Below, in pieces: positions 4,406 to 56,041 of a DNA stretch of 64,000 nt. The notes beneath the pieces were generated by a model. It had not been told where the DNA came from and ran no database searches. It saw only the letters and a list, made by a program, of their open reading frames with translations. The stretch lies in NCBI GenBank assembly GCA_030867685.1, contig JAQOWU010000007.1, positions 1,178,001 to 1,242,000 on the forward strand, read 5' to 3'. This DNA comes from Wickerhamiella versatilis. Taxonomy: Eukaryota. Position 1 is the first letter of the stretch; each line of letters starts with the position of its first letter. Both the position numbers and the translations under genes were made by a program.

Positions 4406-5836
4406 CTACACCAATCTTTCACGGAGTGTTTTGCCTAATGCTTCAACAGCAAGATCCATATTTTCAAACGTGACACTGGCATACGTTCCACGCAAATATA
4501 TAGCGTATTCATCTGCCTCGTCGGACGCGGACAATACTGGCTGTGGAGGCGAGGTATTACCCTTGGCCTTAAACCAGTGGCCTGGGGCCATCAGAACTTT
4601 ATTGTCAATCCCAGCATGCCACAAAGCATCCGTTATTTTCGCTGTGTCTCCTTTAAATTCTTTAAATAAGGTGAAACGACGGGCATCGAACTTTAACCAG
4701 AAAAACATACCAGCCACAGGCGGGGAAACTTCATAACAGTCGCTTGGTAGATATTTCTTGATACTGTCAATACAATGGTCTCTCTTTTTGGTGTATAGCT
4801 CGCGGATTTTCGCCAACCATTCTAAGTAGCCCTCTTGGCCCCACCTCCGAAGCAACCCGTATATAATTGACTGAGTAAAACCACAGGGAGACTGCTGGGA
4901 GGATTCAATGATTAGAAGAAGGCGACTGATAACAGCTTTGGGTCCCACAGCCCATCCCAATCTTGTTCCTGGCGCGATAACTTTAGAGAAACTTTCCAGC
5001 CGAACTACAATTCCCTCTGTATCCATAGAAAGGAAACTTTTAATAAGGGCTTTGGGCAGGTCTACCCCTGACACTGGCTCGTGCTTTTCTCCATAAGGAG
5101 GCATTTGAAGATAATAATAAGGCTCATCTTCAATAATCACCATGTCGTGCTTCGCACAAATGTCATAAATCTTCTTCCTCCTCTCTTCACTCAAACTAGA
5201 ACCTGTGGGATTTTGACCGGTTGGAATAGTATACAAAAGCTTCGGTTTGGGCCCTACCCAATGTTCCAATTGTGCAGCAAGAGCCTCTGGGAGAAGACCT
5301 TCCAGATCCATCTTCGCTGGGACACATACCGCACCCACAGCCTGGGCTGCATTCAAAGCAGATGAAAAAGTAAATTCCTCGACCAATATGGGTTCGCCAG
5401 GATTAACAAATGTACGCAACACAGCGTCCCAGGCAAATGTATTTCCAATTGTCATCGTCAAATCCCAATCATCGTTGGGAATTGAATGAACTCTAGTGGT
5501 GTGCTCCGTAACAAAGTCCTTTAGTGGAGGAAATCCAGCTGAGCCACCGTATTGAAGCGATTTAGCCAGAGGTATCTCTTCTGGGCTACTTTCGAGTGAC
5601 TTACCAATATGAATTTCTAGATTTCCTGATCCCTCAATGGGAGCCTCAATACCACGTTCAAAAGGAACAGCATGTGACTTCACGGATAGATCATCAAACG
5701 GAAAGAGTGAAGTCATCGGCATGCCGCCGCCTAGCGAACGCATTCCGGGATAATCGTTATATTTATGAGAAGCCTTCAGAAGACTTGGGTGGCGACGGTT
5801 CGATTCCTCGCTGAACAAATGACTTATATCTTTCAT
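4406..5836 (-). CDS. ARO8: Aromatic amino acid / 2-aminoadipate aminotransferase (PLP class I)
   Basis: SLGGGMP, LQYG, YTIPTGQNPTG, IIEDEPYY, SFSKVIAPGTRLGW (PLP lysine). Confidence 0.92.
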   Translation of the reverse strand: MKDISHLFSEESNRRHPSLLKASHKYNDYPGMRSLGGGMPMTSLFPFDDLSVKSHAVPFERGIEAPIEGSGNLEIHIGKSLESSPEEIPLAKSLQYGGSAGFPPLKDFVTEHTTRVHSIPNDDWDLTMTIGNTFAWDAVLRTFVNPGEPILVEEFTFSSALNAAQAVGAVCVPAKMDLEGLLPEALAAQLEHWVGPKPKLLYTIPTGQNPTGSSLSEERRKKIYDICAKHDMVIIEDEPYYYLQMPPYGEKHEPVSGVDLPKALIKSFLSMDTEGIVVRLESFSKVIAPGTRLGWAVGPKAVISRLLLIIESSQQSPCGFTQSIIYGLLRRWGQEGYLEWLAKIRELYTKKRDHCIDSIKKYLPSDCYEVSPPVAGMFFWLKFDARRFTLFKEFKGDTAKITDALWHAGIDNKVLMAPGHWFKAKGNTSPPQPVLSASDEADEYAIYLRGTYASVTFENMDLAVEALGKTLRERLV

Positions 5837-5887
5837 TAGTTCTTCCTTCTTACTGCCGATGGGTGTTCAAGAAGTTGGGAACTCTAC

Positions 5888-5898
5888 TATATGACTCA
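5888..5898 (-). promoter_or_regulatory. Gcn4/AP-1 site abutting TATA (TGAGTCATATA on the - strand) upstream of ARO8
   Basis: TATATGACTCA read directly, 52 bp from the ARO8 ATG; ARO8 is a known Gcn4-type target. Confidence 0.6.
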
Positions 5899-6170
5899 CT
5901 AACACTAGAATGCTCAATTTGTCAGATATTTGGAACAATCATTGGCTTGTGAGCTTGAAATGTGTAGCTAAATAGCTCCTATTTTTCGTAAATGTCGATT
6001 AAAATGTGCATTACCATATTTCTTAGATGATGGCATAACCTATTAAGATTGAAAAGCGAGAACAAAATGCTCCAAGATTACCGACAAGAATATAGCTGAG
6101 TTACATTTAGCCCCTCTTATTTACAAAATTGCCGTCAAGTGTGACAAAAAGTGTCAAATTTTTATACGAC

Positions 6171-12398: not shown

Positions 12399-12643
12399 TC
12401 ATAACTCTATGTGAATCTCAATGCATAACATATGTTCCGTTTTGGGTCTTTTCTTTCGCATCGTACATATTTAATAAAGCGCTATAGGTATAGATCAAAA
12501 TTAATTTGCACCGTATATAAGATAGCAAGTTTTTAAAATAAAAGTTGGAATGCCTAACTGCTGAAAACTGTTATTATTGCCAAAACTTTCGGATTAGTAA
12601 TCCGAAGTGAATTATTTTTTGTCGGAAAATTTCACTTTCGAGG

Positions 12644-15600
12644 ATGAGCAGTATGTGGCGCCGTGCGGCGCCGCAATTGCGAGTTATGGGCTCTAGGGTG
12701 CTTTCAGTAGTTAGTACACCTTCTGTTAGTCGCCCAATCTCACGGCCTGCCGCCACCTCGAATTGGACCGGAAGCCACGGCCAGGCCTGGATGCTCATGG
12801 AAGCATGCCTGGAGTCTGGAAACCTTGAGAGAGCTGAGAGCGTTCTTTTGGGCCTTACAGAACTTGGAAGTGATGAGGATGTGCCCCTTGCAATCAATAA
12901 CTACCTACTTAGGTTAGTGGAAATGAATGCTGGCCGGCCTCAAATCGCGAAGGATTGGCTCAGTAGGGTCGAGCGTACAGTGCCTAGGTTCAAACCAAAT
13001 GATGTTACTGAAGCTATAATGCTCAAAAATGCGTGTTTAAGTGGTTCTGTAGATTATTTGAGAGTACATCTCAAGCAGCTGCAACCACCAAACAAACTAG
13101 CGGCTCTTGTGAAACACGTAGAGGTATTGGGTGTTCAGCATATCAAAAAGATAGCTGAAAATAACGGTGTTGGTGTTCCAATCGACCGTCAAACTAGCAA
13201 ATTGATCAATTCCCTGGAAGAGCCGTCTCTGCCGGAAGCAACATTTGACTCTGTACCACTCCAGGAGCCTATTCAGAAAGAAGGATTCGAGGCTTTGGAA
13301 CCTACCTACTCAACTGGATTGAAATCTATTCGTCATGTTCTTGGAGGGTTGCGATGGAATCGCAAGCATTTGAAAGATCTACCTGTTGTGCAAGACAAGT
13401 CACTTGATCTAAATAATTTTATTGATTTCTTCGAGCTTTCGAAGCAAATATCGGAAGACGAACGTCCTACATTTGAAGCATGGCTGGATAGGATAAATGA
13501 GGAACGTCAGCAAAAGGTTGAAATGCGAGGAATCGAAGCGGCTCGTATGAAGTGGAAAGAAATGTTTGAACAGATGGCGGAGATGGATAGACCTGGTAGT
13601 GGATCTTCACTAAATTTGGGCTTGGGTAAATTGGAGGCCCTGTTATGGCATTGGAGCCAGTCAATGACTCCTCTTGTGCAGGAGGAAATCGCAAAGTGTA
13701 AGGAGGTGCTAAGCTATGAGTCTCCTTCCAAGGTCCCTAAGAGCGTGAGCCAGCGTATTGGAGGTTCAGTTCATGACAGGTTTGAATATGGACCGTATCT
13801 GGTAAGTGCCAAACCGGAAAATCTTCCAGCAATGACCATGATGGAATTATTGCGACTAAACTCAACCCGAGGGGGAATTGAAGGAGTCCGCATTGCGAAT
13901 GCTGTACTATCTGTAGGGCGTAACGTTGAATTAGAATATCGTCTCAGCACTCTAAAAAAGAGGGAGCGTGAAACTTTGAAAGGTGTCCCCCAATCCAAAC
14001 GTCATACGCGTGCCGCTCATTCACTCCGTCGACGACTCTGGGAGTCCACATTTGAGGGAGTTTCAATGACATGGCCCACGGCAGTGAGAGCAAAGCTAGG
14101 ATCTCTTCTCATCAGCCTACTTATGCGTGTTGCGAAAGTTCCTGTTTATGCAAAAGACCCTGTCACTGGTGCGCCAGTAAGGGGTCATAGTCCAGCCTTT
14201 CATCATACGTACCAATACCAAAATGGCAACAAAGTTGGTGTGCTGCGGCCACATAAGCTAGTTGCTCAGCATCTCAGTGGAGAAAATGCAGCAACAATAC
14301 AGCCACAGCAATTGCCAATGCTCGTAGAGCCTCGTCCGTGGACTGCTTGGAACAGAGGAGGATACCATTACACCACTACAAAGATAATTCGAAGTCGTGA
14401 AGCACCAGAACAGCTTGCATACGTCATTGCTGCATCGCGTAGGAACCAATTGGATGCAGTTTATGACGGTTTGAATACTCTCGGCCGCACGGCTTGGACA
14501 ATTAACAAGGACATGTATCGGATTATCTCTAAGATTTGGAATTCAAAGAAAGCTTTTCTTGACATTCCTCCTCATGTTTCTCCTCATCCCGATCTCTCCC
14601 ACTTGAAGCAACCCGAGCGGAATGCTGATCCAGTGAAACGGCGAGAATATTTAAGAGAATGTAGGGCACTCACATTGCAAAATGGTGCATGGTATTCTCA
14701 AAGATGTGACCTCAACTACAAGCTTGACATTGCGAGAGCCTTCCTCGGGGAGCGTTTTTACCAGCCCCACAACTTGGACTTTCGCGGGAGAGCGTATCCT
14801 CTGAGTCCGCATTTGACACATCTTGGAAGTGACGTCTCGAGAAGCTTGCTAATGTTCTGGCGCGGACGCGAACTGGGCCCCCATGGTCTCCGTTGGATCA
14901 AGGTGCACTTGGCCAATCTTTGTGGTGTCAATAAAGCCAACCACGATGAAAGGGTTATGTTCGTCGATGAGCACTGGGAGGATGTCGTGGATTCTGCCAA
15001 AAATCCCCTCGATGGAAAAGGTTGGTGGCAAACTGTTGAGTCGCCTTTTCAGGCTCTCGCTGCCTGCATGGATCTTGTCCGTGCTGTAGAGCACCCAGAG
15101 GGACCTGAGAAATATCGTAGTCACTTAACGATTCATCAGGATGGCAGTTGCAACGGTCTTCAGCATTATGCTGCTTTAGGAGGTGATGCTGAAGGTGCTC
15201 GGGAGGTCAACTTAGCTGTGGCCGATAAGCCTCAAGATGTCTACTCGAGAGTCTTAGAAATTGTTCGTCACAAAGTACAAATTGATGCGGATAATGGCAA
15301 CATATTTGCTTCAGTGTTACTTCCAGTACTTACGCGTAAAGTTGTTAAACAAACTGTTATGACCCATGTCTATGGTGTCACCCTGGTTGGTGCGAGGGAA
15401 CAAATTTCGAATCGCCTTCGTGAAATAGAGTCTTTCCCGCAGGAGCAGCGTTTCCGAGCAGCACATTACTTGGCCACAAGAGTGCTTGGTGCTGTACGGG
15501 AGCTCTTTGAATCCGCCCATAAGATTCAAGATTGGCTTGGTGATAATGCCACTCGTATCACACGTTCAATACTTCTTCACAAAGACCTAGCAACAACGCG

Positions 15601-16459
15601 ATTTATGTCTAGTGTTATCTGGACCACCCCATTGGGCCTACCTATCGTACAGCCGTATCGGAAAGAAAAGAGGCGTCAAGTCTCTACTGAACTCCAAACA
15701 ATATATTTAACAGATCCAGATGAATTTGAGAGTGTAAATCCTCGAAAGCAGCGGACGGCTTTCCCACCAAACTACATTCACAGCCTCGATGCAACACATA
15801 TGCTTATGAGTGCTACTGCTTGTGGTAAGGAAGGTATAGATTTTGCCGCGGTGCACGATTCCTACTGGACGCATGCTGGTGATGTTGATGTCATGAATCG
15901 CCATCTTCGAGAGTGTTTTGTAGAGCTACACTCCCACAATCTCATCGAAGATCTCAGAGAAGAATTTAAACAGCGCTATATGGGTCACGTTCAACTTGTG
16001 GATATCCCCCTGGACTCTGAAGTTGGTCGTCAATGTGATGAGTTGGGACATAAGTATACGAAGATACATGGCCACTCTCGTGCGCCTACTATCAACGATC
16101 TTGTGCAGCTTGAGCTGTCAACTCCACCAGAAGAACCTACTCCCTATAGAATCCTCAAGAAATTGGCTCCTGAAGAGATAGATGACCTGGTTGCTAAAGC
16201 GAAGGCTACGAAGCCTTCTGCCGCGCGCATTCATCAGCAGCTCCGTTCAACTGAACATGCTGGCTCAGGATTGGATCGCATAGGGGAAGTAGAAGCCGCG
16301 CTGGACGCGGAAGAAGAACCTGAGGAGGAACCTTGTCGTCGTCGGACCCGCCAGCGAAAAGTAGTCCGAGTCTTAGCACCTCTTGATATTCCAGAGGTGC
16401 CCTCACGTGGAAGCTTCCATGTGAGCCAAGTACTAAACTCACCGTACTTCTTCTCTTAA
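12644..16459 (+). CDS. RPO41: Mitochondrial T7-like single-subunit RNA polymerase
   Basis: HNLDFRGRAYP, HQDGSCNGLQHYAALG, TRKVVKQTVMT, FPPNYIHSLDATH, AVHDSYWTH, C-terminal YFFS. Confidence 0.97.
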   Translation: MSSMWRRAAPQLRVMGSRVLSVVSTPSVSRPISRPAATSNWTGSHGQAWMLMEACLESGNLERAESVLLGLTELGSDEDVPLAINNYLLRLVEMNAGRPQIAKDWLSRVERTVPRFKPNDVTEAIMLKNACLSGSVDYLRVHLKQLQPPNKLAALVKHVEVLGVQHIKKIAENNGVGVPIDRQTSKLINSLEEPSLPEATFDSVPLQEPIQKEGFEALEPTYSTGLKSIRHVLGGLRWNRKHLKDLPVVQDKSLDLNNFIDFFELSKQISEDERPTFEAWLDRINEERQQKVEMRGIEAARMKWKEMFEQMAEMDRPGSGSSLNLGLGKLEALLWHWSQSMTPLVQEEIAKCKEVLSYESPSKVPKSVSQRIGGSVHDRFEYGPYLVSAKPENLPAMTMMELLRLNSTRGGIEGVRIANAVLSVGRNVELEYRLSTLKKRERETLKGVPQSKRHTRAAHSLRRRLWESTFEGVSMTWPTAVRAKLGSLLISLLMRVAKVPVYAKDPVTGAPVRGHSPAFHHTYQYQNGNKVGVLRPHKLVAQHLSGENAATIQPQQLPMLVEPRPWTAWNRGGYHYTTTKIIRSREAPEQLAYVIAASRRNQLDAVYDGLNTLGRTAWTINKDMYRIISKIWNSKKAFLDIPPHVSPHPDLSHLKQPERNADPVKRREYLRECRALTLQNGAWYSQRCDLNYKLDIARAFLGERFYQPHNLDFRGRAYPLSPHLTHLGSDVSRSLLMFWRGRELGPHGLRWIKVHLANLCGVNKANHDERVMFVDEHWEDVVDSAKNPLDGKGWWQTVESPFQALAACMDLVRAVEHPEGPEKYRSHLTIHQDGSCNGLQHYAALGGDAEGAREVNLAVADKPQDVYSRVLEIVRHKVQIDADNGNIFASVLLPVLTRKVVKQTVMTHVYGVTLVGAREQISNRLREIESFPQEQRFRAAHYLATRVLGAVRELFESAHKIQDWLGDNATRITRSILLHKDLATTRFMSSVIWTTPLGLPIVQPYRKEKRRQVSTELQTIYLTDPDEFESVNPRKQRTAFPPNYIHSLDATHMLMSATACGKEGIDFAAVHDSYWTHAGDVDVMNRHLRECFVELHSHNLIEDLREEFKQRYMGHVQLVDIPLDSEVGRQCDELGHKYTKIHGHSRAPTINDLVQLELSTPPEEPTPYRILKKLAPEEIDDLVAKAKATKPSAARIHQQLRSTEHAGSGLDRIGEVEAALDAEEEPEEEPCRRRTRQRKVVRVLAPLDIPEVPSRGSFHVSQVLNSPYFFS

Positions 16460-26597: not shown

Positions 26598-26701
26598 TGC
26601 CTTCGGCGAGGTTCGAACTCGCGACCTCAGGATGACCCTCGATTGTAATCGAAGTCATACTGCGTATGAGACCTGCGCTCTTCCTACTGAGCTACGAAGA
26701 C
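26598..26701 (-). tRNA. tRNA-Met(CAT), elongator type, with 31-nt intron (26634-26664)
   Basis: Cloverleaf GTCTTCG/CGAAGGC, D arm GCTC-AGTAGGAA-GAGC, anticodon loop CTCATA^A, T arm GCGAG-TTCGAAC-CTCGC; 73 nt mature; oligo-T terminator. Confidence 0.95.
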
Positions 26702-29404: not shown

Positions 29405-29531
29405 GCTCGGGTAGTATAGTTGGTTCATTACCTCGTGCTTATAACGTTATGTTTGTCCGGCATCATGTTATTATAATGTCACGATCGTGTTAGAAACGCG
29501 AAGGTCGTGGGTTCGAGCCCCACTCCGAGCA
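29405..29531 (+). tRNA. tRNA-Ile(TAT) with 52-nt intron (29444-29495)
   Basis: Acceptor GCTCGGG/TCCGAGC, anticodon arm TCGTG-CTTATA^A-CGCGA, T arm GTGGG-TTCGAGC-CCCAC, T8 terminator. Confidence 0.95.
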
Positions 29532-44110: not shown

Positions 44111-45223
44111 ATGGCTGGGGTAGAGTCGCCTGTGAGTTCGCACGAATATGAGGGTACAACAAAGTCTGCGCCGGCGCAGATAGAACAGACCCCCGAACCG
44201 GCGGAGGTGGAAAAATCGCAGTCTCAGAGTCGTTCATCTCAGACATCAAAACAGCCAAAATCTGTGCGCCTTGCTCCGGCTCCAGTGCCTGCGGTGTCCC
44301 CGTGGAAGAGTACGGCAGCTGGTGGGTCTTCGTCGGCCCCTCCTGTCGATGCCGCTCTGGCCCAAGCCCAAGTACAGCACAAAAAGCAGACCGGAGGAAA
44401 GGGTAAAGGGCAAGAAGTTCCGCCTCCCCCTAAGCGTACCACTGGGAAGGAGAAGTGGGTTCGTTATACTCCACCACCGGCTCCTGCTGGTTCGACATCA
44501 AACTCTTCACGCGACTCTCCCGGAGCTCAGGGTGAGCGTCGAAATGCCGGTGGCAAGCAGCGTTCACGCAAGCAAGGTGGGGGACAGTCAGGACAGCGTT
44601 CCCAGAATGGTGGTGGACAGCGTAAATCCAAGTCCAACTACAATTCGTCCGGAACTCCGCCGCCACAGCAGCACCCACCGCAGGCGGCGGGTGGGACCTC
44701 GGGCCCGCCAGCTGGCTCATCCAGCCAGAATGCCAGTAAAGGTGGTAGTACTGCCGGAGGTGCAACGAATACTTCGAATGCATCTCCAACGAGAAATGCA
44801 TCTGTAAACGCGGGCCTGCCTGCGGCGCCTCTGATGCCTACAAATGCCCTTGAACTTACTCTTGGCTTGTTGGCGCAACAGATGGAGTACTATTTCAGTC
44901 TTGAAAACTTATGTAAAGATATATTCCTACGTCGCCAGATGAACTCCAGCGGGTTGGTACCTCTTGCCGTGTTGGCAAATTTTAATCGTGTCCGTACTTT
45001 GAGTGGTGGCGATTTGTCCCTTGTGGTTGAGGCCTGCCGTTGGGCACCAGGGGTAGAAACTCTGGGGAAAAAAGTGCGACCTGCACAAAACTGGGAGCAG
45101 TGGATTCTGCCCCTCGAAGATCGTTTGGAGTCTGGTAAGGACGAGTCTTCAGGTGATGACGACGAGCCAAAGTTCGAGGTCGAGAATGCGAAACCTTTTG
45201 TTCCACGGCACAGCCGAGCCTAG
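44111..45223 (+). CDS. La-motif RNA-binding protein (Sro9/Slf1-like)
   Basis: LAPAPVPAVSPW, GKEKWV, La motif QMEYYFSLENLCKDIFLRRQM...VPL..LANFNRV. Confidence 0.9.
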   Translation: MAGVESPVSSHEYEGTTKSAPAQIEQTPEPAEVEKSQSQSRSSQTSKQPKSVRLAPAPVPAVSPWKSTAAGGSSSAPPVDAALAQAQVQHKKQTGGKGKGQEVPPPPKRTTGKEKWVRYTPPPAPAGSTSNSSRDSPGAQGERRNAGGKQRSRKQGGGQSGQRSQNGGGQRKSKSNYNSSGTPPPQQHPPQAAGGTSGPPAGSSSQNASKGGSTAGGATNTSNASPTRNASVNAGLPAAPLMPTNALELTLGLLAQQMEYYFSLENLCKDIFLRRQMNSSGLVPLAVLANFNRVRTLSGGDLSLVVEACRWAPGVETLGKKVRPAQNWEQWILPLEDRLESGKDESSGDDDEPKFEVENAKPFVPRHSRA

Positions 45224-45243
45224 ATGATACAAAGAAAAAATGT

Positions 45244-45810
45244 TCAAGGATCGCCATAGAGAAATTGCATTGACTTTAGCATTGCGGTACTGATATTTTC
45301 TGGCTGGTTTTGATAAAAATACATCATAGCCGCCCATGCAACTGCTGAAGTTATCTGCCATCCTTTTTGATGATACTTGACTGGAGTTAAAGACCGCATT
45401 GCGCCCGCTGAAGCATGACTGAAGGCGATCAACACCAATTGTTCTGCCATGGGCCGATGGTCATTTCCAAAAACTAGCAATCCTGCGGCGGCTCCTGCTA
45501 CCAGTGCATGCCATCCCTTTGTCGATTGCTTGGTTGCAATATCATATCTGAAGGGGTGACCATTAGCAATACACAATAGTACCACCACAGATTTATAGAC
45601 ACTGGCAAACATTGCAAGTGCTACTGCATGTGAGATAGTTGCGCGAATCAGTCTTTTTATTCGTGCTGTCCATGGAGCTCGACTGAAGACTAACATTGCA
45701 ACGAAGGAATGTAGAAATCGCACTTTTACACCGTAAATTGCACCCCTTCCTGCGGATCTAGCAATGCGGCATGCCAATACCAATGCTACCTGGCTCGGCC
45801 TGTCTGGCAT
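45244..45810 (-). CDS. Peroxisomal membrane protein PXMP4/PMP24-like (Tim17 superfamily)
   Basis: GAIYGVKVRFLHSFV, AT..HA..LA.FA..YK, AG...G..VFG, WAAMMYF, SMQFLY; first ATG at 45810. Confidence 0.85.
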   Translation of the reverse strand: MPDRPSQVALVLACRIARSAGRGAIYGVKVRFLHSFVAMLVFSRAPWTARIKRLIRATISHAVALAMFASVYKSVVVLLCIANGHPFRYDIATKQSTKGWHALVAGAAAGLLVFGNDHRPMAEQLVLIAFSHASAGAMRSLTPVKYHQKGWQITSAVAWAAMMYFYQNQPENISTAMLKSMQFLYGDP

Positions 45811-45845
45811 CAAATTCAAAACTTTCTCTTACTAATACGCATCAT

Positions 45846-46726
45846 ATACGAGACGTAGTACAAATTGTTCAACGGCTTGAAATAACTGAGAAGGAGGATA
45901 TTCTGATAATAGAAGTAAAACCTACTTCTTGGGGCCGTAGGACTTTTTTTGGCGCGATGGATACAACGGTTTTTCCTTAGAACCGCTCCCTGCATTTTGG
46001 GCCATTTTTGAGGAGTCTTATGGGTTTCTAATGGTCAAACGAAAAAAAAATAACTTTATAAAGTTTCACACCCTTTGTTGTCGGTCTTTTCGTTAGTACA
46101 TCTGGCGATTTGCCACTACGAGCATCATTCCTTGACGGGATGTAATAGTAGACTTGAGCTCGAGCTTGAGTTTCTGTTAGGTACCACAAGGAGTACAAAT
46201 GGCTAGCAGACTCATATTCGCTTTTTACCCTGCTCGAAGCAAGTTGATAAAGTTCTTAATATGGCTTCTGTTTCCAGACCCGCCGTCGATGCTCGTAGCC
46301 GACTTGGGCCAAGACTAATGTTACTGTGAAGTTTATGAGTGAATTATGAGATTCAACCTGATACTTAACTGGTAACCTAAACGTTAAGGATTCGGTCCAT
46401 CATGAAGGCAAGCCGTTAAGTGGATTATATATCTCTGCTATACCTGCCTCTGCTAATAAAGGACAATTACCAGTCAAACAATGATTGGCCGTAATTTGTG
46501 ACCTTCTGTGGAAAGCCCCATGCAAAAAGAAGTCGTTGACTGGAGTCTTCCAGGGAATTTATTTAAGTCACAAAATTAGTTGATGTACATGACGTTCCTG
46601 AGGCCCGATTTCGGGGTCACAAATGTCAAGAAATCGGGTGCATGCAAAACTTCTGTCGCTAAATAATACGAAAAGTCTATAAGTGACGGTATGTCTCGTA
46701 TTCTGACTTAGTGACTCGTAACACAA
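45846..46726 (+). ncRNA. Candidate large structured ncRNA (identity unresolved; telomerase RNA candidate)
   Basis: No credible protein-coding ORF; nested collinear helices 46091-46320, a 14-bp helix 45935-45948/46010-46023, a possible end-to-end helix 45846-45857/46690-46701; G.U pairs favour the + strand; boundaries approximate. Confidence 0.5.
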
Positions 46727-47062
46727 TTAATTCATGAGAAAAAAAAATAAGTTTACCATATAGTTCTGTTTGGAGAGATGTTCAATCTATCAGATTAGGT
46801 GCTCTTGGTACTTTTTAAGAAATACTATATGCTATATATTGATTATAGAAATTCTCGCCTCGTGGTTCTCAGCAACTCGGACGCAGCAGCAAGAGAAGTG
46901 CTCATCCAAAGGCATAAAGTGTAAACCTTTTTTACCTACTTAAATCCAGCAAGAATACTCTAGCCAGATAACATTTACATCAGGTGAGCGTTAGTATAAT
47001 TGATCCAGCATGTATGTATCACAATTCTTAAATAACGGTATTCTGAAAATAAAGATTACGTG

Positions 47063-48517
47063 ATGCTGTTGGGCTGGTACGCGTATGCGGCAGCGGCTGA
47101 GCCGTTTGTCGTGAGTGCCATGGCGACATATCTGCCGTTATTTCTCGAGAGCATATCCCGGGACAACGCTGTCTGGGCTGGAGACAAGAGAACGCCCTGC
47201 GACCAAGCGCCCGCTGACTCTCCTGGGTTAGTGCCAATACCCATCGAAGCACCGAAATGTGTGGTGCGTCTCGGGTGGGCTTGGGTGGATACGTCAAGTT
47301 TACCTCTGTATACGTTCTCGTTCAGTGTTGCTCTGCAAACACTTCTTGTTGTTACAGTATCTGGGCTTGTCGACCAACCACGTGGACGGCAACACCGCAA
47401 GCTCGCACTCGTTGGATTTGCAATAATCGGGGGGGTTGCTACCTGCGTCATATCACAATTAAATCATACACATTATTATGACGTCGCTATTCTAGCAATT
47501 GTGGCGATCAGTTCGTTTGGCGCAGTAACTGTCTGCGGTAATTCATATCTTCCACAGCTGGTGAAGGCAGAATCAGATAGGTTCAACAATATGAGATTGA
47601 CAATGAGAGACAGATGGCATGGTGCTGTAACAGCCATCGGTGGTATAGATACTGCGAGGGTGGCTGCAGATATTTCCGGAAAGGGTGTCGCAAGCGGCTA
47701 CGTTAGTGCCCTTCTGGTTCAAATCCTGACAATGCTAATTCTGATAAAATCTGATAATATGCTGCAGCCAGTTATTGGGCTCGTTGGACTGTGGTGGCTT
47801 ATCGGTCAGGTGCCGGTAGTTGCCTGGCTCAAGGAACCTATTCAACCACCGCCCACCGACGAGCCCTGGCATTGGAATGAGGGCTGGCGTTCCTTAGGCG
47901 TGACTATTTCCAAGGCACGCGAGCTCCAAGATGTCATGACATTTCTTGCCGGTTGGTTTCTGTTAAGCGATGCTGTCACCACCATTAATTCCACCGCAGT
48001 CTTGTTCGCTCGAGCTAATCTCCAAATGAATACACCAGCCTTGGCGTTGATAGGGTTGCTCACGGTAGTGTTTGCTATCACGGGCTCGTTGTTTGCCCCG
48101 CGTCTTCGCCTGAACCTAGTGAACATTGCAATGGCTGCAGCTGTGATACCCCTCTATGGAATTATTGGGTTTTTCGTCCCATTCATAGGTCTGAAGCATG
48201 CCTGGGAAATGTACCTACTTGCCGTATGGTATGGTATTGTTTTAGGTGCACTCAATGCTGTTTGTCGATCCCAGTTCTCGTTGCTCATTCCAAGTGGGCG
48301 CGAAACTATGTTTTTTGCATTATACGCCGTCACAGATAAAGGCTCCTCTGTCCTGGGGCCCGCGATTACGGGGGTCATCACGGACAGAACACATGATATA
48401 AGATACACTTTCTATTTTTTGCTGGGTATGATGCTGCTGGCGGCATACAGTTTCAGCAACGTCGATTTCGTCCGTGGGCAGAAAGAGGCGGAGGAAGAGG
48501 CTGCATCTCAGGAATAG
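47063..48517 (+). CDS. ATG22: Vacuolar amino-acid efflux MFS protein Atg22
   Basis: GWYAYAAAAEPFVVS, TSSLPLYTFSFSV, NSYLP, WFLLSDAVTTINSTAVLF, FFALYAVTDKGSS. Confidence 0.93.
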   Translation: MLLGWYAYAAAAEPFVVSAMATYLPLFLESISRDNAVWAGDKRTPCDQAPADSPGLVPIPIEAPKCVVRLGWAWVDTSSLPLYTFSFSVALQTLLVVTVSGLVDQPRGRQHRKLALVGFAIIGGVATCVISQLNHTHYYDVAILAIVAISSFGAVTVCGNSYLPQLVKAESDRFNNMRLTMRDRWHGAVTAIGGIDTARVAADISGKGVASGYVSALLVQILTMLILIKSDNMLQPVIGLVGLWWLIGQVPVVAWLKEPIQPPPTDEPWHWNEGWRSLGVTISKARELQDVMTFLAGWFLLSDAVTTINSTAVLFARANLQMNTPALALIGLLTVVFAITGSLFAPRLRLNLVNIAMAAAVIPLYGIIGFFVPFIGLKHAWEMYLLAVWYGIVLGALNAVCRSQFSLLIPSGRETMFFALYAVTDKGSSVLGPAITGVITDRTHDIRYTFYFLLGMMLLAAYSFSNVDFVRGQKEAEEEAASQE

Positions 48518-55959: not shown

Positions 55960-56041
55960 GACAGTTTGGCCGAGTGGTTAAGGCGCTTCCCTGCTAAGGA
56001 AGTGCGCATTGCGTTCGCAGGTTCGAATCCTGCAGCTGTCG
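55960..56041 (+). tRNA. tRNA-Ser(GCT), intronless, followed by genomic CCA
   Basis: GACAGTT/AGCTGTC acceptor, CTTCC-CTGCTAA-GGAAG anticodon arm, long variable arm, GCAGG-TTCGAAT-CCTGC, G73, 82 nt; T5 at 56050-56054. Confidence 0.96.

Follow-up and report, generated by a model that had tools for sequence, protein, structure and literature searches.

LUTI-type mRNA isoforms, with their undecoded 5' leaders, and the SRG1-type lncRNAs of Saccharomyces cerevisiae exert their effects by way of transcription or translation, for which no RNA fold is required. The fungal telomerase RNAs (TERs) that are cleaved by the spliceosome carry an Sm site directly upstream of a 5' splice site, and their branch point and 3' splice site are likewise defined. 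Spliceosomal cleavage makes the 3' end of Schizosaccharomyces pombe TER1 and of other fungal TERs (PMC6746865, in excerpt). The excerpts of the same paper describe the TER of Yarrowia lipolytica as having transcripts that reach 1400-1500 nt at their longest, most ribo-depleted reads that end ~950 nt from the 5' end, and an Sm site that is only 'imperfect' (PMC6746865). They also attribute to Yarrowia TER a verified TAACCC-containing template, a template boundary element, a triple-helix pseudoknot, a three-way junction and core-enclosing helices, with support from covariation and deletion (Cervenak et al. 2019, PMC6746865). The CR4/5 domain consists of P5, P6 and P6.1, the last a 4-bp stem with an NUNGN loop (Qi et al. 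2013, PMC3592445). Beyond the Saccharomycetaceae, the Candida group and the Yarrowia clade, TERs are unannotated in most budding-yeast lineages (PMC6115765, in excerpt); among the literature matches listed, none reports a TER from Dipodascaceae, Trichomonascaceae, Magnusiomyces, Blastobotrys or Wickerhamiella.

The locus considered here is a ~1.25-kb spacer in a 64-kb window, the window being the whole stretch of DNA that was analysed. The spacer is transcribed, and its RNA is abundant, unspliced and non-coding. The explanation that we prefer, tentatively and at somewhat under an even chance, is that the spacer encodes a structured ncRNA on the + strand with a 230-nt arm as its functional core. 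Telomerase RNA is the leading specific identity, a possible but on balance unlikely one, and the locus is not filed as such.

The locus and its coding potential

The spacer and its surroundings comprise the following features.

45811..47062, spacer (~1.25 kb) between the Pmp24/Tim17-family (PXMP4-like) ORF and ATG22, from the ORF list and Pfam
45244-45810, - strand, PXMP4-like ORF (Pmp24/Tim17 family), Tim17/Pmp24 Pfam E 2.8e-05, below the family cut-off
44111-45223, La-domain gene, left neighbour of the PXMP4-like ORF
47063-48517, + strand, ATG22, Pfam E 1.5e-127
46826..46850, no strand assigned, TATA-like AT-rich block, read from the sequence

The PXMP4-like ORF has a relative of equal length (188 aa, 71% identity over 100% of the query); since the two lengths are identical, no upstream coding exon of PXMP4 is missing. 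The block at 46826-46850 is ambiguous: it may belong to a promoter, whether of ATG22 or of a transcript starting on the - strand, or it may serve a long + strand form as a poly(A) efficiency element. The 64-kb window holds no second copy of the spacer. The ATG22 protein gave 199 pattern matches in JGI metagenome contigs, 0 of them confirmed by tblastn; a Vps35 relative at 93% identity exists.

The preliminary description of this DNA had found no credible ORF in the spacer, and this is borne out: the longest stop-to-stop frame has 75 aa, and Pfam returned nothing at cut-off, reverse transcriptase included, for any of the 10 frames tested (the longest from each part, of 30 stop-to-stop frames of at least 30 aa). 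Sister-strain indels of 1-2 nt at no fewer than 8 places, among the variants listed, rule out a conserved reading frame. A cmscan of 45700-47100 on both strands with all 4227 Rfam families, which we take to include telomerase models, likewise found nothing, whether at gathering score or with E as high as 10. The signatures of U1, U2, U3, U5, RNase P/MRP, SRP and snR30 are therefore absent, as had been said from inspection; the covariance-model search of both strands removes spliceosomal snRNAs, RNase P/MRP, SRP, U3 and snR30 as candidates, and with them the U1/U2/U5-like strings picked out by eye (GUAGUA at 45855; GCUUUUUACC at 46219). A single chance match was to mir-305, at 15.7 bits. An H/ACA identity, also raised earlier, fails on position: ~32 nt separate the last hairpin (46653-46689) from the ACA at 46721, and this ACA falls beyond the main RNA end. 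The H box ANANNA is absent, by eye, from the hinge 46639-46652, and there is no Rfam H/ACA match.

Transcription of the spacer

Transcription was assessed in two unstranded RNA-seq runs from a sister strain, X8 and X11, of which X11 is a poly(A) library. The transcribed features are these.

45846..46700, + strand (presumed), main transcribed non-coding region, right end at ~46637-46705, coverage continuing leftward into PXMP4
46740..46893, + strand (presumed), 3' extension of a longer form, enriched in the poly(A) library X11
46689..46694, + strand, GTATGT, 5' splice-site-like, at the collapse of X8 depth and overlapping the 12-bp end-to-end helix listed below

Reads of both runs span 45200 to ~46700 unbroken and without splice joints. 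X8 depth is ~575 at the left edge (45200-45276), 503 over the PXMP4 CDS and ~499 over 45816-46354, with hardly any dip at the PXMP4/spacer border (508, 452, 534). It is 370 at 46355-46662 and then falls bin by bin from 46663 on (114, 30, 14.5, 4.5), with ATG22 at 143. X11 depth is 197-291 over 45816-46662 and 23 over ATG22; relative to ATG22 mRNA, the spacer RNA thus stands at ~9-13x in the poly(A) library vs 2.6-3.5x in the other. Right-hand fragment ends cluster at 46637 in X8 (32/146) and at 46683 in X11 (71/264). The 3' extension, whose depth relative to bin 46586-46662 is 0.09 and 0.05 in X8 and 0.57 and 0.18 in X11, contains a further cluster of X11 ends at 46837 (11/44). These right-hand piles have no poly(A) loose ends among the loose ends listed, and no 5'-end pile-up appears near 45846 among the best 9 of 13 places listed. 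A food metatranscriptome (X2) yielded two identical 151-nt pieces within the arm.

The X11/X8 depth ratio climbs from ~0.3 at the left to ~0.8 at 46355-46662, a gradient that fits the 3' bias of a + strand RNA and is opposite to that of a - strand mRNA ending left of 45244. First-mate imbalance in X8 and X11 was rejected as a strand signal, being at most ~2 sigma and confounded by edge effects. The GTATGT at the right end is one of two on the + strand of the spacer (46689, 47012), the whole window holding 8 on the + strand and 14 on the -; spliced or lariat reads at 46689 were not seen in X8 or X11. An A-rich stretch lies 15-25 nt upstream of 46683 and could equally be the mark of an ordinary poly(A) site.

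Predicted fold of the + strand

The predicted elements of the + strand fold are as follows.

46085..46325, + strand, multi-branched arm with an outer 7-bp helix, the 11-bp closing helix, two long hairpins and a 3-bp mini-hairpin
46116-46126 / 46288-46298, + strand, perfect 11-bp closing helix, pair probability 0.99
45935..46023, + strand, hairpin domain with a 14-bp closing helix (9 Watson-Crick + 5 G.U), pair probability 0.94
46604..46638, + strand, 9-bp hairpin, P 0.61, its 3' foot at the X8 fragment-end pile 46637
46653..46689, + strand, predicted 3'-terminal hairpin of the minimum free energy (MFE) structure
45846-45857 / 46690-46701, + strand, 12-bp end-to-end helix, probability 0.80

All 12 helices that had been drawn by inspection are in place, with 0 mismatches and 9 G.U pairs on the + strand. 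The accompanying remark that every wobble is G.U on the + strand agrees with those 9 pairs and is otherwise partly circular, the helices having been defined as + strand Watson-Crick/G.U runs; an unbiased alignment gives G.U-type vs A.C-type mismatches of 8:3 in the arm and 5:2 around the 14-bp helix. Single helices lie near chance, with Watson-Crick-plus-G.U runs of at least 12 in 59/60 dinucleotide shuffles and of at least 14 in 22/60; a Watson-Crick-only run of at least 11 occurs in 3/60.

The fold as a whole is another matter. The entire 881 nt has a z of -3.03 on the + strand (reached by 0/20 shuffles) and of -0.25 on the - strand (6/20); the arm 46085-46325 has a z of -3.99 on the + strand (0/100 shuffles) and of -1.28 on the - strand (13/100), the values across tests being -4.0 to -4.8 and about -1.2, respectively. 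In a stability scan of the whole window the arm ranks 2/532 window-strands, and the remaining spacer segments are ordinary (+ strand z -0.95, -0.53 and -1.42). The region 45935-46023 gives z -2.4 on the + strand and 0.03 on the -, and holds U-runs plus two Sm-like AU4-5G motifs, at 45994 and 46004. The ~850-nt structured RNA of the preliminary description accordingly survives in part: its + strand fold is collectively beyond chance, while exceptional stability is, in these folding models, confined to the 230-nt arm.

The three-way junction that had been placed within this arm does not survive. Its inner helices and its TCTG/CAGA side hairpin have pair probabilities of at most 0.02, and the proposed arm structure amounts to -51.2 kcal/mol (-62.8 when completed) vs -78.6 for the MFE. 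Two strain substitutions, 46176 G>A and 46212 T>C, break its Watson-Crick pairs at sites that are G.U pairs in the MFE model. By model energies, then, thermodynamics disfavour a three-way junction that includes a P6.1-like hairpin. A 9-bp long-range helix, 45871-45879 / 46409-46417, was rejected as a core-enclosing helix, two strain transversions breaking it.

Strain substitutions and pairing

Counts of sister-strain variants rest on those listed; 49 SNP and 7 indel entries more exist. Among the variants listed, 6 of 9 informative transitions fall on G.U pairs of the + strand MFE structure and 1 of 9 on Watson-Crick pairs (permutation P 0.002 and 0.010); for the - strand MFE structure the corresponding fractions are 2/8 and 5/8 (P 0.33 and 0.75). 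Against a 'decaying hairpin' null the substitution pattern has a P of about 0.06-0.08 (our own calculation, for the variants listed). An energy test on the arm finds the listed strain SNPs no gentler than random SNPs of the same type: 45/300 controls fold as well or better, and significance is reached on neither strand. The sister-strain arm, with the listed variants introduced, has z -2.2 on the + strand and -0.56 on the -, and its branch layout looks unchanged when the dot-brackets are compared by eye.

At the level of individual positions, 5 of the 15 listed SNPs at MFE-paired sites break pairing, including both in the helix 45871-45879 / 46409-46417. The substitution 46123 C>T turns C-G into U.G within the 11-bp closing helix, and 46639 T>C turns G.U into G-C; in the 9-bp hairpin 46604-46638, 46612 C>T keeps its pair and 46634 T>C breaks one. 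The stretch 46640-46737 contains no variant among the variants listed, and all six wobble-site substitutions fall within 46059-46737. Taken together, fold energy and strain substitutions favour RNA-level pairing of the + strand and not of the -, in keeping with the original argument for an RNA rather than DNA palindromes.

A direct repeat around the arm

The segment that holds the arm is bracketed by an 18-nt direct repeat.

46041..46058, + strand, left copy, consisting of G, A9 and TAACTTTA
46738..46755, + strand, right copy, 17/18 identical to the left

The copies enclose 46059-46737 (679 nt). At up to 3 mismatches they are the only matches to the 18-mer in 64 kb; at least 2 matches turn up in 2/100 shuffles. 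A repeat of this kind around a structured 679 nt suggests an insertion, and the spacer without the corresponding 697 bp comes to ~555 bp.

A proposed structured RNA of the + strand

On the preferred explanation, a stable, unspliced, non-coding Pol II transcript of ~0.85-0.9 kb would run from the + strand, overlapping or abutting the PXMP4 start at its left and stopping at ~46640-46705; a minor form, found preferentially in poly(A) libraries, would continue to ~46840-46890, the longer form presumably being the precursor of the shorter. The functional core would be the 230-nt arm at 46085-46325 with its 11-bp closing helix, flanked by smaller hairpins, and the arm may function as an RNA scaffold for proteins. 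An insertion (679 nt, with the 18-nt A-rich direct repeat) probably gave rise to the gene or enlarged it, because the structured part of the gene sits inside the segment that the repeat brackets. Several observations tell against this explanation. A border depth without a dip is what would be expected of a single transcription unit, and two independent transcripts would need to overlap by at least 100 nt; the right-hand piles, without listed poly(A) ends, resemble a - strand 5' end, and a TATA-like block lies 150 nt rightward.

Alternative explanations

Precisely these observations are the strength of an alternative that we consider unlikely, yet with an appreciable chance of being right, namely that the signal comes from the - strand: PXMP4 would have a distal start at ~46640-46840 and a ~870-nt leader, or a tandem upstream lncRNA. 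PXMP4 would be regulated by transcriptional interference or through upstream AUGs, the fold of the + strand would have no bearing, and the locus would be ordinary. The continuity of X8 depth from CDS (503) to spacer (499) with almost no border dip, the sharp right ends at 46637, 46683 and 46837 with no poly(A) among the loose ends listed, and the TATA-like block 46826-46850, which lies upstream of those ends on the - strand, all speak for it; the 679-nt segment, if an insertion, may have landed in a former 5' UTR or promoter. Against it, the leader would contain 13 upstream AUGs. Poly(A) depth moreover grows away from the 3' end of PXMP4 (155 -> 197 -> 291), the opposite of 3' bias, the CDS-to-spacer ratio is unequal between libraries, and X8 and X11 do not agree on the three end positions. 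The - strand has z values of -0.25 and -1.28 and takes 5/8 of its substitutions on Watson-Crick pairs, so that the signals of the + strand are left unexplained.

That the RNA is the TER of this yeast, with a template copied by TERT, is a special case of the preferred explanation and, on the evidence at hand, improbable without being far-fetched. TERT and accessory proteins would attach to the arm and hairpins, and cleavage of a longer polyadenylated precursor, possibly as the first spliceosomal step at GTATGT 46689, would produce the mature 3' end. The size class and the pattern of two forms are like those of Yarrowia lipolytica TER (PMC6746865, in excerpt); GTATGT coincides with the collapse of X8 depth, and reads of the poly(A) library continue past it; the abundant RNA has structure but no coding capacity, and every other large ncRNA class is excluded by Rfam. 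A template-like repeat of the right polarity is also present.

46433..46455, + strand, best candidate for a template, a C/U-rich direct repeat with a 15-nt unit and 8 nt of terminal redundancy

The product of this candidate would have 40% G and 13% C, and the stretch is weakly paired (mean P unpaired 0.49); about 0.4 repeats as good are expected per strand by chance (our own estimate), and 46433 C>T in the sister strain reduces the redundancy from 8 to 7 nt. The exact 23-mer has 0 matches in JGI metagenome contigs, and six 10-mers of the implied 15-nt repeat have no telomere context in the literature among the matches listed. A search for literature joining telomerase RNA with ATG22 found none, and the text of the telomere review PMC7857110 contains no named relatives; supplementary tables and figures of the telomere reviews may list the repeat.

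Much else weighs against a TER. The candidate's product lacks the TTAGGG-like core that is said, in excerpts of PMC12449055, to be kept in deep-branching yeasts; other C-rich stretches that might serve as template vary from strain to strain (46069 +A, 46517 C>T); and the candidate lies 3' of the arm, an order that is not canonical. The last 600 nt before the 3' end contain no Sm site of the form AU4-6G, which on the + strand occurs at 45994 and 46004 only; relaxed pyrimidine versions occur near the 3' end at 46649 and 46700. Candidates for a triple helix exist in U-runs (45944, 45970, 46005) and in an A9 run (46042), but the run lengths vary between strains (A6, A9, A10-11). The poly(A) enrichment over ATG22 speaks against a mainly non-adenylated mature form, unless internal A-runs were captured. 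To our knowledge budding-yeast TERs do not need P6.1, and the failed P6.1 test therefore lowers the telomerase claim no more than mildly. What failed is the P6.1-like junction, which is disfavoured (P at most 0.02) and whose loop misfits NUNGN (PMC3592445). That the Rfam search yields no telomerase match with either threshold is expected, because the TERs of distant Saccharomycotina branches, unannotated as they are, escape homology search (PMC6115765, in excerpt).

If the RNA is truly a TER, it yields the template, and hence the telomere repeat, of a poorly sampled lineage, and adds a small TER to comparative studies; failing that, it is an abundant unclassified yeast RNA with a strand-specific structure within an apparent insertion, and still a concrete target.

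A + strand transcript without any RNA-level function is a doubtful reading, of low probability. It would be read-through or a long 3' UTR of the La-domain gene, or else an SRG1-like transcript that damps ATG22, SRG1-SER3 being the precedent for an upstream interfering transcript. The depth of ~575 at 45200-45276 stays level across antisense PXMP4, as such read-through would have it. The transcript also heads toward ATG22, its long form stopping 170-220 nt before the ATG22 ATG, and ATG22 depth is below that of the spacer RNA by 3.5-fold in X8 and 9-13-fold in X11. Left unexplained are the arm's rank of 2/532, on the + strand only, and the wobble-biased substitutions, and in so compact a genome one would hardly expect a 1.5-kb 3' UTR that spans an entire antisense gene.

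We think it equally improbable that the structured 679 nt is the fossil of a mobile or retroposed element, passively co-transcribed. The candidate sources are a 5'-truncated non-LTR retrotransposon or a retro-copied RNA, A-tailed and with an 18-nt target-site duplication; the + strand fold would be a legacy of the source RNA, and as an origin story this is compatible with other readings. The 17/18 identity of the repeat, the A9 at the start of each copy and their standing as the sole two matches in 64 kb argue for such an origin; the right A-run follows directly on the end of the segment, as an A-tail would, and the arm and all six wobble-site substitutions lie within the segment. A second copy is nevertheless absent from the window, the 10 of 30 frames tested carry no reverse-transcriptase or other Pfam signal, the transcript has equal depth also over the 230 nt that precede the segment, and the substitution bias, if real, represents a present-day constraint on structure. 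There is, finally, a small chance that the TER and the insertion belong together: a TER of a long-branch, early-diverging budding-yeast lineage with no TER known so far, compact at ~0.85 kb, without a canonical Sm site, with an end at a 5' splice site and hairpin that is made from a polyadenylated precursor, and with its gene in a retroposition-like insertion with an 18-nt duplication, would be a TER moved or renewed via an RNA intermediate. A protein-coding gene or a PXMP4 upstream exon is dismissed on the lack of a Pfam match among the 10 frames tested, the frame-breaking strain indels and the equal-length PXMP4 relative.

Comparison with known systems

The spacer RNA resembles the TERs of the Yarrowia clade in being an intergenic Pol II transcript, as we read it, of ~0.9 kb with a longer, precursor-like form, in lacking a canonical Sm site and detectable sequence homology, and in coming from an early-branching budding-yeast host, whose nearest named Vps35 relatives are Trichomonascus, Lipomyces and Yarrowia (36-44% identity). 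A difference from Yarrowia TER is that TAACCC is absent from the spacer, where the nearest approach, TAACCT at 46373, has no terminal redundancy. With the S. pombe TER1 type it shares a consensus 5' splice site at the main RNA end and a poly(A)-enriched form that reads through this site, no spliced product being seen; it differs in having no Sm site there, and its branch-point candidates are weak, in our own reading.

The likeness to the CR4/5 of vertebrates and Pezizomycotina is one of layout, in that the closing helix bears two hairpins, a long one on the 5' side and a very short one on the 3' side, next to its own 3' strand. The details are unlike: the proposed 4-bp hairpin has the loop UUUC and a probability of 0.02, the MFE alternative is a 3-bp stem with the loop CCGCC, and the junction predicted in the spacer arm is four-way. 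LUTI and SRG1 types, for their part, resemble the spacer in that a non-coding transcript either adjoins a neighbouring gene without a break or is directed toward it, and in the many upstream AUGs of the - strand. The spacer is set apart from them by one segment with an exceptional fold that is specific to a single strand.

Locus and transcription of the spacer

The spacer lies in a compact, intron-poor segment of fungal chromosome, with these features:

44111-45223, + strand, La-domain ORF, converging on PXMP4
45244-45810, - strand, Tim17/Pmp24-family (PXMP4-like) ORF, 188 aa
45811-47062, spacer (1252 bp) from the PXMP4-like ORF to ATG22, containing the candidate RNA
47063-48517, + strand, ATG22

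The stop codons of the La-domain and PXMP4-like ORFs are only 20 nt apart (45223-45244); therefore each 3' UTR must overlap the other's coding region. Vps35 encoded in the window shares 36-44% identity with the best of its full-length relatives, and the nearest named ones are from Trichomonascus, Lipomyces, Dipodascopsis and Yarrowia; relatives so distant mark the host as an early-branching, fast-evolving budding yeast.

The spacer is transcribed. The RNA data mapped to 45200-47500 consist of two contig sets and two raw-read runs from a strain ~4% diverged from the window: X8 (random-primed, paired; described in its record as 'RANDOM' alone, its total-RNA origin not being certain) and X11 (poly(A), single-end), both unstranded.

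Read depth across the spacer and its flanks (X8; X11)
PXMP4 CDS: ~503; ~155
45816-46354: 499; 197
46355-46662: 370; 291
46663-46739: 114; 240
46740-46816: 30; 157
46817-46893: 14.5; 48
46894-46970: 4.5; 26
ATG22 (47125-47500): ~143; ~23

Right ends of fragments accumulate at 46637 in X8 and, in X11, at 46683 and 46837; RNA reads reveal no splice joint across 45200-47500, and two identical 151-nt pieces from a food metatranscriptome map within the arm (46085-46325). In the RNA-seq strain, ATG22 reads have a start pile at 47080, 3' of the ORF's first ATG (47063), the next in-frame ATG being at 47120; either the true ATG22 start is further downstream or reads are clipped by strain divergence. One contig set (X1) also breaks at 46993-47010. 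Runs under one species label are ~4% off the window in 45200-47500 (most reads 95-99% alike) and a run under a second label is ~2-3% off (41 mismatched letters and 11 gaps over 1811 nt); these are therefore deeply diverged strains within the species, or a species complex.

The preliminary description's reading of the spacer as lacking a credible ORF is borne out: stop-to-stop frames reach 75 aa at most, and none of 10 frames tested against Pfam, from 30 stop-to-stop frames of at least 30 aa, reaches the cut-off. Strain indels of 1-2 nt fall at eight or more sites (46041, 46069, 46109, 46140, 46259, 46261, 46425 and 46738). The PXMP4-like protein has just two relatives among 5.8 billion proteins searched (99% and 71% identical); both are 188 aa, the length of the window's ORF, so its start is sound and the spacer hides no coding exon. 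Known RNA signatures are likewise absent, as had been proposed: an Rfam scan of 45700-47100 (E up to 10) gave no credible match, its sole hit being a chance 15.7-bit miRNA. Over the whole window Rfam finds three tRNAs and nothing else:

26598-26701, - strand, tRNA gene, 104 nt, long enough for an intron
29405-29531, + strand, tRNA gene, 127 nt, long enough for an intron
55960-56041, + strand, tRNA gene

Elsewhere in the window, a pattern search returned intron-like segments adjoining ORFs, with a GTAAGT, GTGAGT or GTATGT 5' end, CTRAY-type branch points and a YAG 3' end:

5811-5899, - strand, intron-like segment
34389-34563, - strand, intron-like segment
41788-41956, + strand, intron-like segment

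This pattern search alone suggests an intron consensus looser than that of S. cerevisiae.

One exceptional arm

The spacer yields a real and abundant RNA that is non-coding and has a single arm of exceptional stability, specific to one strand. All helices previously listed are present at the positions given for them, with zero mismatches. Singly they are unremarkable, since dinucleotide shuffles of the 881 nt contain Watson-Crick plus G.U runs of at least 12 in 59/60 cases and of at least 14 in 22/60 (Watson-Crick-only runs of at least 11 occur in 3/60); collectively they are remarkable, though only locally. The full 881 nt folds at -254 kcal/mol on the + strand (z -3.03, 0/20 shuffles as stable) and at -210 kcal/mol on the - strand (z -0.25). 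The arm has z -3.99 on + (0/100 shuffles) and -1.28 on -, and the remaining spacer windows on + give z -0.95, -0.53 and -1.42. Because the excess is confined to the arm, the ~850-nt structured RNA originally envisaged reduces to a 230-nt exceptional arm and a few ordinary hairpins. Among 266 non-overlapping 240-nt windows covering the 64 kb and scanned on both strands (532 window-strands, 20 shuffles), the arm is second most extreme (z -4.78). The sole more extreme window, 12485-12724 (-4.87 on -, -3.61 on +), spans the 5' end of the ORF for mitochondrial RNA polymerase (12644-16459); a repeat search found no long inverted repeat there, and, extreme on both strands, it resembles a DNA-level feature.

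The arm's minimum-energy fold (MFE, -78.6 kcal/mol) is a four-way junction on the 11-bp closing helix. The three-way junction first drawn on the same helix is not supported: its inner helices and TCTG/CAGA side hairpin have pair probabilities of at most 0.02, its energy is -51.2 kcal/mol (-62.8 once completed), and strain changes at 46176 and 46212 conflict with it, whereas wobble-site changes at 46176, 46212 and 46220 fit the MFE hairpins. An H/ACA assignment is unsupported. The argument that every wobble is G.U on the + strand was partly circular; in an unbiased alignment, G.U-type mismatches outnumber A.C-type ones (8 vs 3 between the arm halves, 5 vs 2 in the 14-bp domain).

A direct repeat of 18 nt (46041-46058 and 46738-46755, 17/18 identical; G, A9, TAA, C or G, TTTA) has no further match in the window when up to 3 mismatches are allowed. 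Its copies bracket 679 nt, within which lie the arm, the main 3' end and all six of the wobble-site substitutions. The pair resembles a target-site duplication left by an A-tailed insertion. Minus this putative insertion the spacer would be ~555 bp; the window holds no second copy of the bracketed segment.

Strand of the transcript

The transcript is probably on the + strand, and a + strand structured ncRNA is the most likely reading of the spacer RNA, if a tentative one. Excess fold stability is confined to that strand. In its MFE, 15/23 listed strain SNPs fall at paired sites and 10 of these 15 preserve the pair; of the nine listed transitions capable of disrupting pairing (G>A, U>C), six lie on G.U, one on Watson-Crick and two on unpaired positions (permutation P 0.002 for wobble excess, P 0.010 for scarcity of disruptions). 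The - strand MFE, examined likewise, gives 2/8 wobble and 5/8 Watson-Crick (P 0.33 and 0.75). Depth in the poly(A) library relative to the random-primed one rises from ~0.3 over PXMP4 through ~0.8 at 46355-46662 to >2 past 46663. This is the trend that 3' bias would produce in a + strand RNA; a - strand mRNA would show the reverse. The long form accounts for ~9% of depth in X8 and ~57% in X11. Against this, depth scarcely dips at the PXMP4/spacer border (508, 452, 534), the places listed include no 5' pile-up near 45846, the listed right-hand end piles lack poly(A) loose ends, and to the right of these piles there is a TATA-like block. That the signal is instead a long PXMP4 leader on the - strand is credible, if less likely. 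Also counting against the + strand, real SNPs are no gentler on its energy than random ones (45/300 controls), z falls to -2.2 when the listed variants of the sister strain are applied (the branch layout seems unchanged by eye), and under a null of a passively decaying old hairpin the substitution bias reaches just P ~0.06-0.08 by our own calculation.

Comparison with telomerase RNA

That the + strand RNA is a telomerase RNA (TER) is possible but improbable, and we do not file it as a member. Several features count against it. Canonical Sm motifs in the spacer occur at 45994 and 46004 alone, far from the 3' end; the P6.1-like junction does not hold up; homopolymer runs, potential parts of a triple helix, range from A6 to A11 among strains; in the poly(A) library the RNA shows relative enrichment rather than depletion; and an ordinary poly(A) site could be marked by the A-rich stretch that lies 15-25 nt upstream of 46683. 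In favour of TER is the best template-like repeat (46433-46455, with a 15-nt unit and 8 nt of redundancy), which would specify a G-rich product. Against it, this product has no TTAGGG-like core, repeats of such quality are expected ~0.4 times per strand by chance, and neither metagenome contigs nor the texts of papers gave a counterpart. Also in favour, one of two GTATGT motifs on the spacer's + strand stands at 46689, where depth collapses. Failure of homology searches, as in the missing Rfam match, is expected of such a TER (PMC6115765). In size, and in having short and long forms, the spacer RNA parallels the Yarrowia TER described in PMC6746865.
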